A DNA stretch of 64,000 nucleotides from Spirochaetia bacterium (GTDB taxonomy: Bacteria; Spirochaetota; Spirochaetia; SZUA-6; Bin103), in assembly GCA_965203055.1 (NCBI GenBank), contig OZ241863.1:2336001-2400000 (forward strand). Reading direction: 5' to 3'. This document shows positions 39,343 through 53,358 of this stretch, one piece after another. The stretch's first letter is position 1; each line of letters begins with the position of its first letter. Made by a program: the position numbers.

Positions 39343-42300
39343 CACTGCCACGGCAACTGACCCGGCAGTCCCGGTGGTCCCCGGCGGCGCCTGCCGGGGT
39401 CAGCGCAGGCTGGGAATCAGTTGCGCCGGGTTGAGCTGGATATTGCCGCGCCGAATCTCGAAGTGGAGATGCGGGCCGGTAGAGCGGCCGGTCGAACCGA
39501 CGCGGCCGAGCGTCTGGCCGCGGCGCACCATCTGGCCGCGGCTGACGTGGATTCGGTCCAGGTGCCCGTACAACGACGAGTAACCGGCCAGGTAGTGGGA
39601 CACGATGATGTAGTTGCCGAGCACCGCGCCGCGCCCGACGGCGGCAACCCGCCCTCCCTGGGTGGCGCGCACCGGCGTGCCGCGCGGCGCGGCCACGTCC
39701 ACCCCGCGGTGGAAGCTGCGGCGCCCGGTGAAGGGGTCGGCCCGCAGCCCGAAGCCGGAACTGACCCAACCGTTGACGGGCCGTTCGAAGGCGGCGCCGA
39801 TGGCCAGCGTCAACTCCTGCCCCGAGTGCTGAACGCCGGGGAAGAACAGCTCGGTGGACGGCTTCAGGAGGTTGCGGGTGACCCCGTTGGTACGCAGGAC
39901 GGTTTCCGGGAGCACGCCGTGGCGCAGGCTGAGCTCATCGAGGTCCTCCCCCACCGGCAGGTAGATGCCGTCCTGATTGGGAATCTGGATCAACTCGCCG
40001 ACTGACAGCAGATGAACGCCGACTCCGGCGGTGCGATTCAGGGAAGCCACGGTATCGAGCGTGAGCCCGAAGCGCTGCGCGATGACGCTCAGGTTGTCGC
40101 CGCGCCGCACCCGGTACTGCTTGATGTCGAGCGGCAGCGGCGCCAGCTCCATCCCGCCGCGGAGATCCGCGGCATCCGCGGCCGGCGGCGCCGGTGACGC
40201 CCCCGGCGCCGCCGGCGCGAGGTCGATCTGGATCGTCTCCAACCAGTCGCTCGGATAGTGCAGGTACTCCTGCTCGTCGTACAGCGCCGCCCGCGTGGAC
40301 CCGATGACGGTCGCCTGCACGGCGAACGCCGTCAGGCCGCACGCGGCCGCCGCCAGCAGCCAGCGGTGCAGGCGCACCCGCGGCCGCCGCCGGCGGGCGG
40401 CGACGTAGGGCTCGCCCACCAGAGCCGGCAGCCGCGCGGACGGATTACTCCAGGTGTTCGGACGGGTCGACATGCGCACCGTTGAGAAAGATCGAAAAGT
40501 GCAGGTTGAACGCACTATTGTACCCGGTGTTCCCCATCTCTCCTACCCGCTGCCCCTGCCGCACGCGCTCCCCTTCCGCCACCAGCACCTTGTTCAAGTG
40601 AGCGTAGAGCGTCTGATAGCCATCCGCGTGGCGCAGGATGAGGTAGCGGCCGTAGTTGCCGTTGTATCCCGCGGTGCGCACCGTGCCGCTCATCGCCGCG
40701 ACGATGGGAGTTCCCGGCTGGTTGGCGATGTCGATGCCGTTGTGAAACTTGCGCAGGCCGGTAAAGGGGTCGCTGCGGTAGCCGTACCCGGAAGTGATGC
40801 GGCCGGGCGCAGGCTGGATGAAGATCTCGCCGAGGACGCGGTTGCGGGCGTTCTCGCCGAGTCCGGCGCCGGGAATCAACAGGTTCTGACCGGCGGCCAC
40901 GAGCGCGCCTTCCACCCCGTTGACCGCCAGCAGAGCGGACAGGCTCACTCCATGGCGCGCGGCAATGCGGCCGGCGTCGTCGCCGCGCCGCACGGTGTAG
41001 CGAATTCCGGATTGGCTGGGAATGATCAACTCGCGGCCCGGCTTCAGGTCACCCTCGCGTTGGACGTCGTTGAAGCTGATGATCGTGTCCACGGTGACGC
41101 CGAAGCGATCGGCCAGCGCCGCCAGGGTATCGCCGGCCGCGACCAGGTAGCGCTCGTAGCTGGCTCGGGACCAGGTATCGGCAAGGCCGTCCGGGAGGTT
41201 GCGCGCGCCTGCCCCCGTGGCCGCGGCGCCCGCCGAGCCAAGGGTCATCAAGTTGTCGAGCAGCGCCTGCCGCAGCGCCACCCCGTCGCCGGAGCTGCCG
41301 ATTCCCGCCACCGCGGGGACCACGAACTTCACCACCGCCGTGGCCGCCAGCGCGGCGCCCACCAGCAGCGCGATGGCGGTCAGCGGCAGCCGCCGGACAC
41401 CGCGCCCGGCCAGCGCGGCGCCGCGCCTGCCGGCGCGGCCCATTGCCCTGGGCAGCGCCTTGCACAGGGCGGCGAACCAGCGCATGCCGGAGACCGCCCA
41501 ACGGGTGCCGGAGACCGCGGAGCGGGCGAACGCCGCCGACCCGCGGCGCACTGACGGCAGCGGCAGCGCCGCCGCGGCGCTGAGCTCCTTCACCCTGACG
41601 CCGGCGCGCCTGGGGGCGCGGCGCGGGCGCTGGCGCTGGTCGCGCAGCGCCGAATGACGATTGCGCCCGCGGCGGCGTCCATCTCCGCGCCGGCCGACGC
41701 GCTGGTCCCGCAATCCGGCGTAGACGGCGTCACGCATTCATTTTGCATATCGACAGTTCGCGGGCGGGGCATTACGTCTCGGCGGCGCGCGGCTCCGGTT
41801 TCCCGCCGGGCGGGGGCTGCAGCGCCGCGCTGCGGTCGGCGGCCAGGTTGACGATCAACTCCACCTCGCCCTGGCTGGCCGCCAACCGGTCGGCGATTAC
41901 CGCGTTGGAAAACCCGAGCCGGCGCAGGCGCATCACCTGCGCCACTCGCTGCGCGGCGGAGCCGGCCGGCGCGGGCGGTTCCGCCGCGGCGCCGGGCCCT
42001 GGCGCCGGGGGCGGCCGCGGCAGGCGCCGGTCGGCCTGCCGCAACAGCTCGTTCAGACGCCGGATGCGATCCTCCAGCAGGGTGACGTTACGCTCCGCGG
42101 CGCCGTTCAGCTCGACGATCAGCTGCGCCACCTCGGACTGAAGCTGCCCGGCGCCGCCCGCTCCGCGGACGGCGCCCTCGCCGCGGGCGCTGCGATCGAT
42201 CCGCCGGCGCAGCACCAGATACAGCCCCGCCAGCCCGGCAAGTTGCAACGCGATGAGGAGGGCGACCACGCTGCGCCACTCAAGCGATACCGCGTTTGAG

Positions 42301-51300: not shown

Positions 51301-53358
51301 GCGCCGGCCATTACTTCTCGGCCAGCCACGTGCGCACCGCCCGCGCCGCGTCCGCGGGCCGCTCGCGGGCCAGGCTGGCCGCGTTCCGCTGCATCTCCCT
51401 GGCCCGCAGGTTGTCGGCCTCACGTGCCCGGCCGTTGCGCGCGGCCGCCCGCAACCGCGCCGGGCGCAGGCCGGAGTGGTGCGCCGCGCGCGACCGCCGG
51501 CGCCGGCCCAGCCACCAGGAGAGGGCGGCCACCAGCAGCAGCGCCGCCGCGCCCGCGGCGGCCGGCGGCAGCAGGCGCAGCAACTCGGCCTCGCGCCGCA
51601 GCAGCGCGTCCTCCTGCCGGAACTGGCGCGTGCGGTCGAACTGCAGGTGCTCGACGGTAACCGAGTCGCCGCGCCGCTCGTCCCAGCCGACGGCGCCCTG
51701 GATGAGCAGCGCGGCCTTGCGCAGCTCCTCGGCCGAGACCGGCGTGTATTCCCGCCGCACGCTGCCATCCGCATTCACCACCACCCGGCCGTCCGGCTCG
51801 AAGACCGTCCGCCACACGCCGTCGAGCGCCACGCTCGCGGTGATCCGGTTGATCGCCCACGGGCTCTTCTCGGTGATCGTGCGGCGGTTGACCACTTCGT
51901 TGCGGGCCGCCGAGCCGCGCTCGCGGGCGGCCGGATCGGGCGCGGCTCCGGCCTCGGTAGGCTCCGGCGCCGCGCCGTAGAACGACTCCTGTTCGGTCTG
52001 GTCGGACACGGTGAACTCGGCGGACAGATCGAGATCGATGTCGAGGCGCACGATCTGCACGCGGTCGAGCGTAAAGATGTTGCCCAGCGCGGTCAGGATT
52101 TCGCGCTTGTAGCGCTGCTCCAGGTGATGCTTGGTATCGAGCTGGCGTTCCACCAACGTCATGCGGCCATGCCCGGCAGGGTCCGAGAAGTCGTTCACCT
52201 GCATTCCGCGCGGGTCGAGGATGACGATGTTCTCGGCGCGCAGGCCGGCCACGGCGAACTGCACCAGGCGCTGAACGCCGGCCACCTTCTTGCGATTCTC
52301 CAGGATGTCGGAGCCGGGCCGCGGCGTGATGATGATCGAGGCCGTGGTCGGGTTCTGATCTTCCGCGAACAGCTCGGTTTCGGGCACTACCAGGGTGACG
52401 CGCGCGGCCACGACGTCGTCCAGCGCGGCGATGTGCTGTTCCAGGTTGCGCGTCAGGGCGCGCTGCAGGTTGACGTTGCGCTCGAAGTCGGTAATCGAGA
52501 ACCGGTCCACGTCGAACACGGCGAACGGGTCGGTGCGCGGGGGAATCAGGTCTTCGCGGATCAGGATTGCGCGCAACCGCCGCGCACTGTCCTGATCAGC
52601 GACCAGGATGCGGTTGTCGGGGCCTATTTCGTAGTCCGCGCCTTCCTGGTCGAGGCGGGCGGCGATGCTCAGCAGCGCCTGCTGATCGGCGATCGGCGCC
52701 CCGATCAGGGCCACCGCATGCCGCTCGGCGGGATTCTGGCCCGCGCCGCGGGCGGCGCCCAACAGCGCCAGCACCACGAGCCCGGCGGCGGCGGCCACCA
52801 CCAGCGCTGCCTTCTGAAGCTGAGTCCAACGACCCCACCGGGCGGACGCCTGCTCCCACAGGCGCGCCGAGCGCTCGTTCATGTTCCCCTCCCACCGGTG
52901 CGAAGGCGCACCGGATCCGGAGGGCGGCCGGCTCACGTTGCGCCTGAGTCACGCGCTATCCGTTAACGCACGGATCGACCGTTCCTGTCAACCGCCCGGA
53001 GGTCCGGTTTTACAGGATGTAGCGGGTCAGGTCGCGGTCTTCGATGATCTTGCCGAGGCGCTGGTTCACGTAGTCGGGAGTGATGGTCACGGTCTGGCCC
53101 TGCAAGTCGGGGGCGTTGAAGGAAAGCTCCTCGAGCAGCAGCTCCATGATCGTATGGAGGCGCCGCGCGCCGATGTTCTCGGTGTTGCGGTTCACCTCGG
53201 TGGCCAGCTCCGAGAGCCGATCGACGGCCTCGGCGGTGAACTTCAAGGTTACCTCCTCGGTCCCCAGCAGCGCCGTATACTGAGTGATCAACGCGTTGCG
53301 CGGCTGCGTCAGGATGCGTTTGAAGTCGTCGCTTCCGAGGGCCGACAGCTCCACCCGA

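Follow-up and report, generated by a model that had tools for sequence, protein, structure and literature searches.

Selective retention of a trimmed flagellar base in a spirochaete lineage without flagella

The spirochaete analyzed here has no flagellum, yet it keeps part of a flagellar base. Comparison with flagellated relatives shows that at least four internal deletions turned the ancestral spirochaete flagellar superoperon into the present locus, and that each retained protein has shed a portion facing a vanished partner. Judged from their sequences, the remaining proteins very probably form an assembled complex that is kept for some selected function; that this function is protein export we propose only tentatively. 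The lineage with the relic is marine and probably sponge-associated.

The assembly consists of one 4.56-Mb contig with a marker-gene completeness of 95.9%, and the window is the whole stretch of 64,000 nucleotides that was analyzed. Genes and gaps of the locus are given in window positions, fliG and flgM in contig positions. The genome-wide survey's note had described an 11-gene operon, fliF-fliM-fliN-fliO-fliP-fliQ-fliR-flhB-flhA-flhF-fliA, on the minus strand at 42280-52882, and Pfam found every one of these genes. They comprise fliF (MS ring; 51311..52882; 523 aa; YscJ_FliF, 3.4e-36); fliM (C ring; 50121..51329, start tentative; 1.3e-36, with the middle domain and the C-terminal FliN-like domain present); fliN (49717..50124; 135 aa, a SpoA-type domain alone; 4.6e-24); fliO (48976..49665; 2.4e-10); fliP (pore; 48156..48992; 7.8e-72 and PDB comparison); fliQ (47878..48159; 3e-27 and alignment); fliR (47036..47881; 1.3e-52 and alignment); flhB (45936..47039; 6.5e-75, with transmembrane and C-terminal domains, under the NCBIfam cut-off); flhA (44560..45930; 456 aa; FHIPEP, 1.9e-147); flhF (SRP-type GTPase; 43299..44552; SRP54, 5.6e-33, and NCBIfam); and fliA (sigma-28, FliA/WhiG family; 42280..43092; Pfam sigma-70 regions 2, 3 and 4), whose product clears the NCBIfam cut-offs for 'sigma factor WhiG' and FliA_WhiG. 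The fliG gene lies outside the operon, as the note had it, and is complete, with N, M and C domains (contig 1449841-1450911).

The note had also reported that flagellin, rod, hook, FliE, FliH/I/J, MotB and chemotaxis genes are absent, and profile and tblastn searches of the genome agree. Flagellin_N and Flg_bb_rod gave no match in the genome at E<=1, searches for FliS, FliW and FlaA returned none, and the fliI_yscN model made 13 matches, none over its cut-off (best 230.5 versus 379.5 bits); MotA, FliL, FlhG, CheW and CheA were likewise not found in the genome. When 31 superoperon proteins of one flagellated relative of the same order were used as tblastn queries against this genome, orthologues were present for 12. 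Fifteen had no match at E<=0.01 (FlgB, FlgC, FliE, FliJ, FliK, FlgD, FlgE, MotA, MotB, FliL, FapA, CheW and three unknowns), and the other four (FliH, FliI, FlhG and CheA) had weak or paralogue-level matches at most. FliI is absent in all 24 genomes of the family; Flagellin_N occurs, as previously counted, in one of the 24, a fragmented bin (G004). Among genomes at least 90% complete, Flagellin_N is present in 37 of 37 from seven other families versus 0 of 21 from the relic's own.

The statement that only these flagellar families are present did not survive. An FlgM orthologue of 95 aa is encoded at contig 4516648-4516935; it scores 21.3 bits with Pfam, under the 25-bit cut-off, and is supported by sequence and synteny. 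Directly 3' of fliA, on the minus strand, lies a gene for a membrane-anchored protein of 165 aa, weakly DUF6115/DUF2802-like (41772..42269); flagellated relatives carry its orthologue within their flagellar/chemotaxis superoperon. Matches came from five relic genomes of the genus (G001, G007, G008, G009 and G010), and none from G006 or the sister genus.

The origin of the locus can be read from gene order. In a flagellated relative the order is xerC-hslV-hslU-flgB-flgC-fliE-fliF-fliG-fliH-fliI-fliJ-x-fliK-flgD-flgE-motA-motB-fliL-fliM-fliY-fliO-P-Q-R-flhB-flhA-flhF-flhG-x-fliA-fapA...cheW-cheA, and the present locus is therefore the same operon minus at least four internal segments. Both flanks and all retained genes are syntenic with the flagellated relatives G032 and G040. 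The conserved upstream flank is hslU with hslV (53010..54958, bounds approximate, minus strand); the downstream flank, which lies beyond the che genes in the flagellated relative, consists of two LysM/M23 peptidase genes (39400..41737, minus strand). The hslU-fliF gap (52883..53009, minus strand), with a TTGACA box inside, is a deletion scar where flgB-flgC-fliE stand in the flagellated relative, and the flhF-fliA gap (43093..43298, minus strand) is another, where flhG and a 247-aa gene are found. Deletion junctions within the conserved operon measure tens to about 200 bases. What remains is FliF, a C ring (relocated FliG, FliM and FliN), FliOPQR, FlhB, FlhA, FlhF, sigma-28 and, elsewhere, FlgM.

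The retained proteins are themselves trimmed. FliF has its RBM-type domains and C-terminal FliG-binding helix, while the stretch that corresponds to residues 290-360 in a solved FliF of spirochaete type has shrunk to about 30 residues by alignment and PDB mapping. We take this stretch to be the beta-collar region; the shortened segment is the rod-facing part of the collar, the rod being gone. The FliG-binding helix is present in all 10 relic FliF sequences aligned (G006 has no FliF match in its stretch, and G002 and G005 were left out), and FliG in the genus has the EHPQT motif and its C domain. In alignment, FliM lacks the N-terminal LSQDEIDQLL, the CheY-binding motif of flagellated relatives, and FliN has lost the CheX-like domain that its counterpart in a flagellated relative, the 377-aa FliY, still carries. 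Residues 280-283 of FlhB (46191..46202, minus strand) are indeed DGRR, as had been noted, where flagellated relatives have the NPTH autocleavage motif, which is replaced in seven of seven FlhB sequences examined from the genus.

FlhA here consists of the transmembrane domain, a low-complexity linker and cytoplasmic subdomain D1; D2, D3 and D4 are gone. The truncation described earlier is real in this genome (model positions 2-407 of 657), but it is not a trait of all relics: only this genome and its closest relative show it, and it is recent. The report that FlhA similarity never extends beyond about residue 298 was an artefact of the truncated query: a full-length query aligns to about residue 690 in eight of the nine other relic genomes examined, which thus retain the cytoplasmic domain, G009 being the sole one where the alignment stops early. 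Contigs from three other studies span the junction between the flhA stop and the flhF start, so that the truncation is no assembly artefact. D2, the docking place of late chaperones, is lost throughout the genus, and D3 and D4 are additionally lost in this genome. The motifs of the FlhA membrane domain and cytoplasmic loop show no variation among 12 relic and flagellated sequences. The docking domains that remain are FlhB_C and FlhA D1 in this genome and G009, FlhB_C and FlhA_C without D2 in five congeners, and a full FlhA_C without FlhB_C in three sister-genus genomes; at least one cytoplasmic docking domain survives in every relic lineage. The pore has changed too: residues 243-245 of the FliP M-loop (48258..48266, minus strand) read I-I-V instead of M-I-M. 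All 17 flagellated relatives have MIM as the triplet and all 12 relic genomes IIV; of the 11 alignment columns specific to relic FliP, 7 lie clustered about the M-loop.

Of the 24 family genomes 12 encode FliP, the number given in the survey; they are 9 of the genus's 11 genomes, this one included, and 3 of the 13 from the sister genus. The two genus members without it are 76% and 81% complete. Ten of the 13 sister-genus genomes lack the fliF-flhA block; in the five of these ten that were examined the deletion is clean, with hslU adjoining fliA, and one of the five, G020, has a FliF scar of 25 residues. The complex is therefore dispensable in close relatives. Sister-genus relics lack FlhF, FliM, FliN, FlhB_C and FliG_C and retain the gate, and FliM and FliN are fused in G001, G010 and G008. 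Erosion of the set is stepwise and differs between lineages, yet all six CORE genes (FliOPQR, FlhB and FlhA) are present in every relic genome examined, and FliF and FliG_N are always retained. Of the 24 family genomes 23 carry FliA and 23 carry FlgM; both genes are present in every gate-less genome, the 10 of the sister genus among them. The pair is thus independent of the gate, the conservation of FliA is no evidence for the complex, and export of FlgM is not the essential reason for retaining the gate.

That the set is retained rather than junk, as the survey had concluded, is borne out by dN/dS below 1 for all 12 genes and by unbroken reading frames in 12 genomes from two genera. In each of two independent species pairs, none of the 12 genes has a bootstrap 95% upper bound over 0.70. 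Over six species pairs, dN/dS is 0.05-0.16 for FliA, 0.13-0.28 for FliP, 0.14-0.24 for FliQ, 0.20-0.34 for FliR, 0.22-0.32 for FlhA, 0.17-0.23 for FlhF and 0.24-0.35 for FliF, and 0.31-0.42 for FliM, 0.25-0.43 for FliN, 0.38-0.46 for FliO and 0.37-0.53 for FlhB. FliP, FliQ, FliR, FlhA, FlhF and FliF fall within the range of the flanking housekeeping genes (XerC 0.17-0.27, DprA 0.20-0.25). Where it is kept, FlhA_C is under purifying selection (0.26-0.46). The identity ratio, that is, relic-to-flagellated over flagellated-to-flagellated identity, is 0.87 for FliP, 0.82 for FliQ and 0.78 for FliR versus 0.85 for XerC and 0.9 for M23a, and 0.55, 0.5 and 0.4 for FliG, FliN and FliM; the gate core matches the housekeeping pace and the C ring is strongly accelerated. 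Every population indel in coding sequence is a multiple of three, and the 10 relic loci examined showed neither frameshifts nor internal stops; a TGA in G011 FliP falls upstream of the likely start. FliP is about 70% identical between the two relic genera.

A guarded case can be made that these proteins still assemble in the inner membrane as a basal body without rod or ATPase, slowly exporting into the periplasm. FlhF would position it in this genus, with a full C ring attached, and the gate would be an exporter driven by the proton-motive force, discharging directly into the periplasm, the usual discharge side of a spirochaete flagellar gate. Flux would be low, an aliphatic Ile/Val constriction replacing the deformable methionine gasket, and, since FlhB cannot switch, export would be stuck in a single substrate class; of the known clients only FlgM is still encoded. 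In Salmonella with uncleavable FlhB, late substrates such as FlgM are reportedly not exported, and in model systems FlhA D3 and D4 belong to the nonameric docking ring. Several observations speak against export: the methionine-free M-loop of all 12 relic genomes, the want of FliH/I/J and of any known early substrate, the missing FlhA D3 and D4, the effect of uncleavable FlhB in Salmonella, the dispensability of the fliF-flhA block in the sister genus, and the persistence of FliA and FlgM without a gate in 10 genomes there. Precedents speak for export: ATPase-independent type III export is documented in Salmonella (PMC4230889), secretion through leftover flagellar parts is reported in Lysobacter (PMC7688988), and the SecY gate is described as an isoleucine ring (PMC8239009). 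On the opposing side, in Salmonella FliP, according to this last report, the first and last M-loop methionines are 99% conserved over about 2500 homologues, triple substitutions almost kill function, and function tracks methionine count (PMC8239009).

The main alternative, itself doubtful, is an assembled complex that exports nothing. Its MS ring, C ring and plugged gate would act as a scaffold in the membrane or at the pole, conduct ions or signals, or organise other envelope or division functions, the IIV ring sealing the pore permanently. MS-ring and C-ring proteins of Campylobacter have such a non-motility role, in placing cell division, and serve as precedent. The loss of the gasket in every relic, with most relic-specific FliP columns nearby, would fit, as would the pruning of FlhA_C here and the deletion of FlhB_C in the sister genus, the survival of FlhF and a complete C ring in a genus that has no motor, and the fast evolution of the C ring, expected if its partners changed; the drop in Salmonella function with methionine loss points the same way (PMC8239009). 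A mere scaffold, however, would have no need of FliQ, FliR, FliO and FlhA/FlhB membrane domains conserved at housekeeping-like rates, or of a docking domain under purifying selection in each lineage. Moreover, sister-genus relics discarded the scaffold parts FlhF, FliM, FliN and FliG_C and retained the gate, so that the common denominator is gate plus MS ring.

Slow decay is improbable. On that account the set, now without a function of its own, is being lost, and what has kept it so far is chance, polar or transcriptional coupling to the terminal gene fliA, or the cost of mis-assembled partial complexes. The lineage-specific erosion (FlhA truncation here and in G009, FliM-FliN fusions, sister-genus losses), the absence of the whole block from most sister-genus genomes and dN/dS values of FlhB, FliO and FliM (0.3-0.5) above the flanks lean towards it; but the dN/dS bounds, the unbroken frames, the in-frame population indels and genes intact across two genera argue otherwise, and transcriptional coupling would not conserve protein sequence. 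Less probable again is that FliOPQR-FlhB-FlhA is a tube or vesicle platform that nucleates nanotubes, as claimed for Bacillus subtilis, or other membrane remodelling, with no export of soluble protein. The nanotube model is contested, the diderm spirochaete envelope is unlike that of Bacillus, sequence offers no specific support, and FliF and FliG_N, never lost here, are dispensable in that model. In its favour, all relics examined hold the six CORE genes, which B. subtilis nanotubes are reported to need while not needing FliI or flgB-fliF (deletion of flgB, flgC, fliE and fliF; PMC6456723); the same paper notes bacteria with CORE alone, and a 2026 preprint ties CORE to a 'tubeosome'. A working flagellum with parts too diverged or unassembled is scarcely credible: the genome is 95.9% complete and small proteins can evade models, as FlgM did, but the single contig, the short junctions inside a conserved operon, the failure of all 15 same-order tblastn queries, and the family-wide absence of FliI and, in well-completed genomes, of flagellin stand against it.

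Relic flagellar cores are already known elsewhere. Buchnera aphidicola builds flagellar basal bodies without filament; it too is a host-associated bacterium with a flagellar base, without flagellin, as presumed exporter, but it keeps the rod, hook, rings and FliH/I/J, all gone here. Streptomyces WhiG is a FliA-family sigma factor in a non-flagellated organism, and here likewise a sigma-28-type factor and its partner anti-sigma factor would be kept for non-flagellar genes; the presence of FliA and FlgM in nearly all family genomes fits such a use, although the relic's anti-sigma factor is a genuine orthologue of FlgM. Myxococcus has a needle-less T3SS* and orphan fliOPQR operons. It shares with the relic a type III core without external appendage, but the myxobacterial systems keep the ATPase and are of a non-flagellar lineage, whereas the relic is a recent, vertically inherited derivative of the spirochaete flagellum. 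Salmonella FlhB autocleavage mutants include N269A and P270A. With NPTH and both 99%-conserved methionines replaced, the relic is a natural equivalent of these and of the FliP M-loop mutants (PMC8239009); in the laboratory mutants, however, all other flagellar parts are there and the defect shows in assembly, while the relic's changes have become fixed and are shared by both genera as conserved features.

In non-flagellated Lysobacter enzymogenes OH11, leftover FlhA, FlhB and FliPQR are expressed and reported to secrete non-flagellar proteins (PMC7688988). The same export proteins are kept there without a flagellum, but Lysobacter has FlgD, probably a hook-basal body, and the FliI ATPase on which secretion depends (PMC7688988), whereas the relic has no ATPase, rod or hook, and even its FlhA, FlhB, FliF and FliP have been cut back or changed. 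The 'CORE-only' cases named in PMC6456723 (Myxococci, Chloracidobacterium thermophilum and Succinatimonas), like the B. subtilis platform, resemble the relic in keeping six gate genes with most of the organelle gone. The relic differs in also having MS ring, C ring, FlhF, FliA and FlgM, and its origin by deletion within a flagellar operon is directly visible. Abby and Rocha 2012 describe injectisomes as having originated from flagella (PMC3459982), and the relic exemplifies the first step proposed for such exaptation, in which motility parts are lost and the export core stays. A lineage without flagella but with a selected, trimmed base would be a natural minimal type III export core.

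Eleven genes, identified by Pfam as fliF, fliM, fliN, fliO, fliP, fliQ, fliR, flhB, flhA, flhF and fliA, occupy the minus strand of the window at 42280-52882. Upstream of fliF, whose ATG lies at 52882 behind a GGAGGGG box, are hslU, hslV, a xerC-like gene, dprA, a second recombinase, ftsZ and ftsA. Downstream of fliA are genes for a 165-aa membrane-anchored protein and two LysM/M23 peptidases, and secA flanks the operon on the downstream side, on the opposite strand. Gene limits were taken from Pfam and alignments; GC3-based gene calls were wrong for several genes. Together with FlhB and FlhA, the proteins FliO, FliP, FliQ and FliR, these four all above Pfam cut-offs, make up the complete set of six gate proteins, and the best PDB matches of the relic FliP are solved FliP chains. 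The housing MS ring is represented by FliF, with its FliG-binding C terminus and a shortened collar segment, and by FliG, which is complete (N, M and C domains) and encoded far from the operon, at contig 1449841-1450911. Gene order and best matches are of the flagellar type, and membership in a non-flagellar type III secretion system (injectisome) is therefore not proposed.

Several features of the surroundings were recorded along the way. After fliG come a DUF1223 gene and one of CarboxypepD_reg-like type, and an open frame of more than 3360 codons, stop to stop (contig 1438001-1448083, plus strand), ends about 1.8 kb from it. On the other side, away from this very long frame, lies a V-type ATPase operon; as a stand-in ATPase it was dropped, being 3-11 kb away, on the other strand and an ordinary operon of its type. 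Three adjacent very long open frames of about 1117, 1000 and 1480 codons, with coding-like GC3, are present at 17591-28260 of the window (minus strand). The two LysM/M23 peptidases were rejected as type III clients, as both have N-terminal hydrophobic anchors (by eye) and are ancestral flanking genes.

The genome, a single contig of 4.56 Mb that is 95.9% complete, was searched for the remainder of a flagellum. Flagellin_N and Flg_bb_rod gave no match at E<=1, and the FlaA sheath protein gave none; the 13 matches of the fliI_yscN model all fell short of its cut-off (379.5 bits, the best match scoring 230.5), and FliI exceeded its cut-off in none of the 24 genomes of the family. FliS and FliW were absent from all four family genomes tested, this one among them. 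When 31 proteins from the flagellar superoperon of G032, a flagellated relative in the same order, were used as tblastn queries, 12 had orthologues in this genome and 15 had no match at E<=0.01 (FlgB, FlgC, FliE, FliJ, FliK, FlgD, FlgE, MotA, MotB, FliL, FapA, CheW and three unknowns), while FliH, FliI, FlhG and CheA gave weak or paralogue-level matches at most. Judged by these searches, the genome lacks the filament, the rod, hook and FliE, and the MotA/MotB stator of a functional spirochaete periplasmic flagellum, and likewise the FliH/FliI/FliJ ATPase complex of the flagellar export apparatus. The FlaA model was positive in all three flagellated relatives tested versus none of 14 control genomes, which supports the claim of the genome-wide survey's note that these organisms are spirochaetes.

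The relic locus arose by deletion from a flagellar superoperon. In G032 the order is xerC-hslV-hslU-flgB-flgC-fliE-fliF-fliG-fliH-fliI-fliJ-x-fliK-flgD-flgE-motA-motB-fliL, then fliM-fliY-fliO-fliP-fliQ-fliR-flhB-flhA-flhF-flhG-x-fliA-fapA-x-DUF6115-cheW-cheA, with two M23 peptidases further on; the window has the same flanks and gene order minus four blocks. Loss of flgB-flgC-fliE leaves 127 bases between hslU and fliF; loss of fliG to fliL makes fliF abut fliM; loss of flhG and one gene leaves 206 bases; and the fourth deletion removed fapA and the che genes and spared a DUF6115-like gene. The distant FliG is 50-52% identical to the in-operon motor FliG versus 29-38% to the second paralogue found in flagellated relatives, which indicates a moved copy, not one taken from the other paralogue.

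Within the family, FliP is found in 12 of 24 genomes: 9 of the 11 in the genus, the other two having a completeness of 76% and 81%, and 3 of the 13 in the sister genus. The same search recovered it from every one of 38 genomes in the order's seven other families. When the comparison is limited to genomes of 90% completeness or more, flagellin occurs in all 37 from those families and in none of the 21 from this one, and Flagellin_N matches a single family genome, the fragmented bin G004. This bin (81% complete) has three flagellin matches, no FliP or FliA match and a FliG-like match just 30% identical; it represents either contamination by foreign contigs or a family member that is truly flagellated. 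Complete loss of the gate block in one subclade was late and clean, as indicated by five gate-less sister-genus genomes in which fliA directly follows hslU, by 25 residues from the FliF N terminus that survive in gate-less G020, and by FliA proteins of gate-less sister-genus genomes that are 90-92% identical to FliA of a relic-bearing congener.

The relics form a graded series. FliF, FliG, FliM, FliN, FliOPQR, FlhB, FlhA, FlhF and FliA are all present in the genome studied, its closest relative G009 and another congener, G007; in three further congeners (G001, G010 and G008) the FliM middle domain and a FliN-type domain are fused in one reading frame of 285-291 aa. The three sister-genus relics (G011, G017 and G021) are without FliM, FliN and FlhF, their FliG consists of the N and M parts only (about 200 aa), and their FlhB ends after the membrane domain, the whole C domain being absent. 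The common denominator is FliF, FliG_N, FliOPQR, the FlhB membrane domain and FlhA; in G002 and G005, assembled in short contigs, the FliP loop alone is covered.

Pruning extends to single domains, and the parts trimmed are exactly those facing lost partners. The FlhB autocleavage site NPTH, present in G032 and in G040, a second flagellated relative, is absent from all seven genus sequences, its place being taken by DGRR (this genome), HGER (G009 and G007), DPAR, DAAR (twice) or GGAR. FlhA, of 694 aa in G032, here matches FHIPEP positions 2-407 of 657, scores 489 bits against a TIGR01398 cut-off of 772 and does not have the full cytoplasmic domain D1-D4; it ends after D1 in this genome and G009 only. 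With a full-length FlhA query, eight of the nine other relic genomes examined align up to about residue 690. FlhA of five congeners is without about 50 residues that map to Salmonella FlhA 434-486 (query 377-448 corresponds to Salmonella 362-433, and 454-646 to 487-680), a segment that we take, in name and limits, to be subdomain D2, that includes positions D456 and F459, mentioned in PDB titles, and that the sister-genus relics retain. An AlphaFold model of the short FlhA, built on a 12-sequence alignment, has a mean pLDDT of 69.5, with residues 351-450 at 75-86, and Foldseek matches of the predicted fold span just 71-94 residues of solved FlhA cytoplasmic domains (1.8-2.3 Å). FliF keeps its C-terminal helix (…LARERP.D.AR.LR.WL…) in all relics; of the stretch aligned to residues 290-360 of a solved FliF, about 30 residues are left here and fewer in the sister genus. 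The FliM N-terminal motif LSQDEIDQLL of G032 and G040, which presumably acts in CheY binding, is missing from all relics, and the counterpart here of the 377-aa FliY of G032, which has a CheX-like domain, is a 135-aa FliN.

The pore itself has also changed. At the M-loop of FliP, occupied by MIM or MMM in solved FliPs, G-MIM is found in all 17 flagellated genomes drawn from the seven other families and G-IIV in all 12 relic genomes, so that the M-loop methionines of the export apparatus are missing here. Among about 215 aligned FliP core columns, 11 have disjoint residue sets in relic and flagellated genomes, and seven of these crowd into a 28-residue span around the loop, among them two more changes from Met to Ile, Val or Leu. 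As the relic genomes are kin, IIV counts as one inherited and kept change, not as 12 events; the change in the pore gasket is fixed. Hüsing et al. 2021 (PMC8239009) report 99% conservation of the first and last loop methionines in about 2500 homologues, a function that scales with methionine number and is nearly abolished by triple substitutions, a pore seal maintained by medium-sized hydrophobic residues, and a SecY gate made of a ring of isoleucines. FliR, for its part, carries an insertion of about 10 residues (…VIGLEAGAARGAG…) in six of seven genus sequences, all but that of G006; the insertion is missing from sister-genus and flagellated FliR in the alignment. In sister-genus FliR the GFG of the presumed plug region is VGVG or shortened.

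The relic genes have long been retained under purifying selection. Nei-Gojobori dN/dS in six species pairs was 0.05-0.16 for FliA, 0.13-0.28 for FliP, 0.14-0.24 for FliQ, 0.20-0.34 for FliR, 0.22-0.32 for FlhA, 0.17-0.23 for FlhF, 0.24-0.35 for FliF, 0.31-0.42 for FliM, 0.25-0.43 for FliN, 0.38-0.46 for FliO and 0.37-0.53 for FlhB, next to 0.17-0.27 and 0.20-0.25 for the flanking XerC and DprA; FlhA_C, where present, gave 0.26-0.46. Bootstrap 95% intervals in two independent pairs were all below 1, the highest upper bound being 0.70. We excluded HslU and most values of the second M23 peptidase (M23b), whose alignment pieces were fragmentary or paralogous, and FliP of the pair G017-G011, where 28 extra upstream codons, read through a TGA, shifted the codon alignment (apparent omega 2.99); the pair G032-G040 is not a baseline, its dS being saturated (1.2 to above 3). 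Identity to flagellated relatives, divided by identity between two flagellated families, was 0.87 for FliP, 0.89 for FliA and 0.82 for FliQ and FlhF, level with XerC (0.85) and the first M23 peptidase, M23a (0.9); strong acceleration is seen in FlhB (0.61), FliG (0.55), FliN (0.5) and FliM (0.4).

Near-identical DNA (at least half of the sampled words) occurs, outside the likely source study, in a sponge-metagenome, a marine-metagenome and an 'organism B' study; from these three come the contigs, 4230, 3963 and 727 bases long, that bridge the junction of the flhA stop and flhF start. No RNA data set appeared among the carriers of operon sequence. Between populations from different studies, four indels in coding sequence (27, 9, 9 and 18 bases) are all in frame; they lie at window 44911-44935, in the low-complexity FlhA linker, and at 50090-50426, in the 5' end of fliN and in fliM. 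Of two single-base insertions listed, one is in the flhF-fliA gap and the other, at window 51915 inside fliF, is on one of several contigs from the likely source run.

We suggest that the relic proteins may still assemble, and that the gate may still pass protein, slowly, into the periplasm. Protein export is the function towards which we lean, with rather less than even confidence, in preference to a scaffold that exports nothing, because the common denominator of the relics consists of channel proteins and not of scaffold parts, because these channel proteins evolve at housekeeping rates, and because each lineage retains at least one cytoplasmic docking domain under constraint. Against export stand the lost methionines, the missing ATPase, the FlhA ring domains missing in this genome and the dispensability of the gate in close relatives. 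A non-exporting scaffold is a reading that we consider unlikely, if worth keeping in mind. Simple decay, to which the trimmed domains and the late loss of the whole block might be credited, is improbable in view of dN/dS intervals below 1 and of in-frame indels between populations. A role in membrane tubes of the CORE type is less probable still; the six genes required for the CORE nanotube platform in PMC6456723 (FliO, FliP, FliQ, FliR, FlhB and FlhA) are all present. A hidden flagellum can hardly be entertained next to the searches for filament, rod, hook and stator.

Within the export reading, a more specific and distinctly speculative proposal, doubtful in its full detail, is that the basal body was converted, after loss of the flagellum, into a stand-alone inner-membrane translocon that would export a private protein set into the periplasm: a type III gate within an MS ring, lacking rod and ATPase, with a SecY-like aliphatic pore ring in place of the methionine gasket and with the substrate-switching and late-chaperone modules removed.

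FliA, the product of the last gene of the operon, scores above the NCBIfam WhiG and FliA_WhiG cut-offs, and WhiG of Streptomyces, to which the pair of sigma-28 and FlgM can be likened, is a FliA-family sigma factor with a life of its own. FlgM scores 21.3 bits in this genome, under the Pfam cut-off of 25; the 95-aa orthologue (contig 4516648-4516935, minus strand, outside the window) aligns over its full length with FlgM of flagellated relatives, and its gene adjoins a TP_methylase gene, an arrangement shared with G032. Of the 24 family genomes, 23 have FlgM and 23 have FliA, with every gate-less one counted in both sets, which argues that the pair lives independently of the gate. Upstream of flgM, a TAGCC...TATAAT-like pair is conserved in 11 genomes and no sigma-28 box is seen. 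The strict consensus TAAA-N14-16-GCCGATA has three matches in this genome, all intergenic and upstream of reading frames, namely those of an ABC permease, of an HlyD-family protein with a C39-peptidase ABC exporter, and of an enolase-superfamily protein; counts in five relatives were not above a reversed control pattern, and one site is common to the closest relative only. A second motif, CTTTG...CCGAC, seen in three of 10 flagellin upstream regions of flagellated relatives, gave 1-5 matches versus 3 for its control. Neither pattern revealed the targets of the sigma-28/FlgM pair.

As separate observations, the HlyD-family gene and the C39-peptidase ABC exporter gene, an export pair of the bacteriocin type, lie at about contig 954875-958112, directly downstream of a perfect consensus box. 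The likewise perfect box at contig 3573344 (plus strand), ahead of the enolase-superfamily (MR_MLE_C) gene, recurs in G009 (C1:3902177, plus strand) with four bases differing, conservation between two close relatives being the sole evidence for it. G007 holds eight near-identical copies of a 27-base sigma-28-like box, TAAAGTG.TCGAA.GGAGTAGCCGATA, scattered over one contig; to judge by their appearance, they belong to a repeated or mobile element.

Orphan type III cores are already known, among them those of Buchnera and the myxobacterial T3SS*. Others are in print for Lysobacter (PMC7688988) and for Myxococci, Chloracidobacterium and Succinatimonas (PMC6456723). In the open-access literature searched, we found no description of a spirochaete relic, of pruning domain by domain or of a natural methionine-free M-loop. 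The spirochaete case, in marine and probably sponge-associated populations, joins the few known. The 12 genomes together form a natural series of deletions in the flagellar base, from which the rod, hook, filament, motor, ATPase, FlhB switch, FlhA D2 (and D3-D4 in this genome), FliF collar segment and FliP methionine gasket have been removed, and in which FliPQR, the FlhA and FlhB membrane domains, FliF and the FliG N-terminal domain are kept under housekeeping-like constraint. Such a series reveals which parts are held together by something besides motility, and its members are testable variants bearing on the minimal gate, on a gate with one cytoplasmic docking domain and on the purpose of the methionine gasket. 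In a family without flagella, sigma-28 and FlgM survive as a regulatory pair that stands by itself. If the relic were indeed a stand-alone translocon, it would be an independent living example, in a host-associated bacterium, of the first step in the proposed origin of the injectisome from the flagellum.
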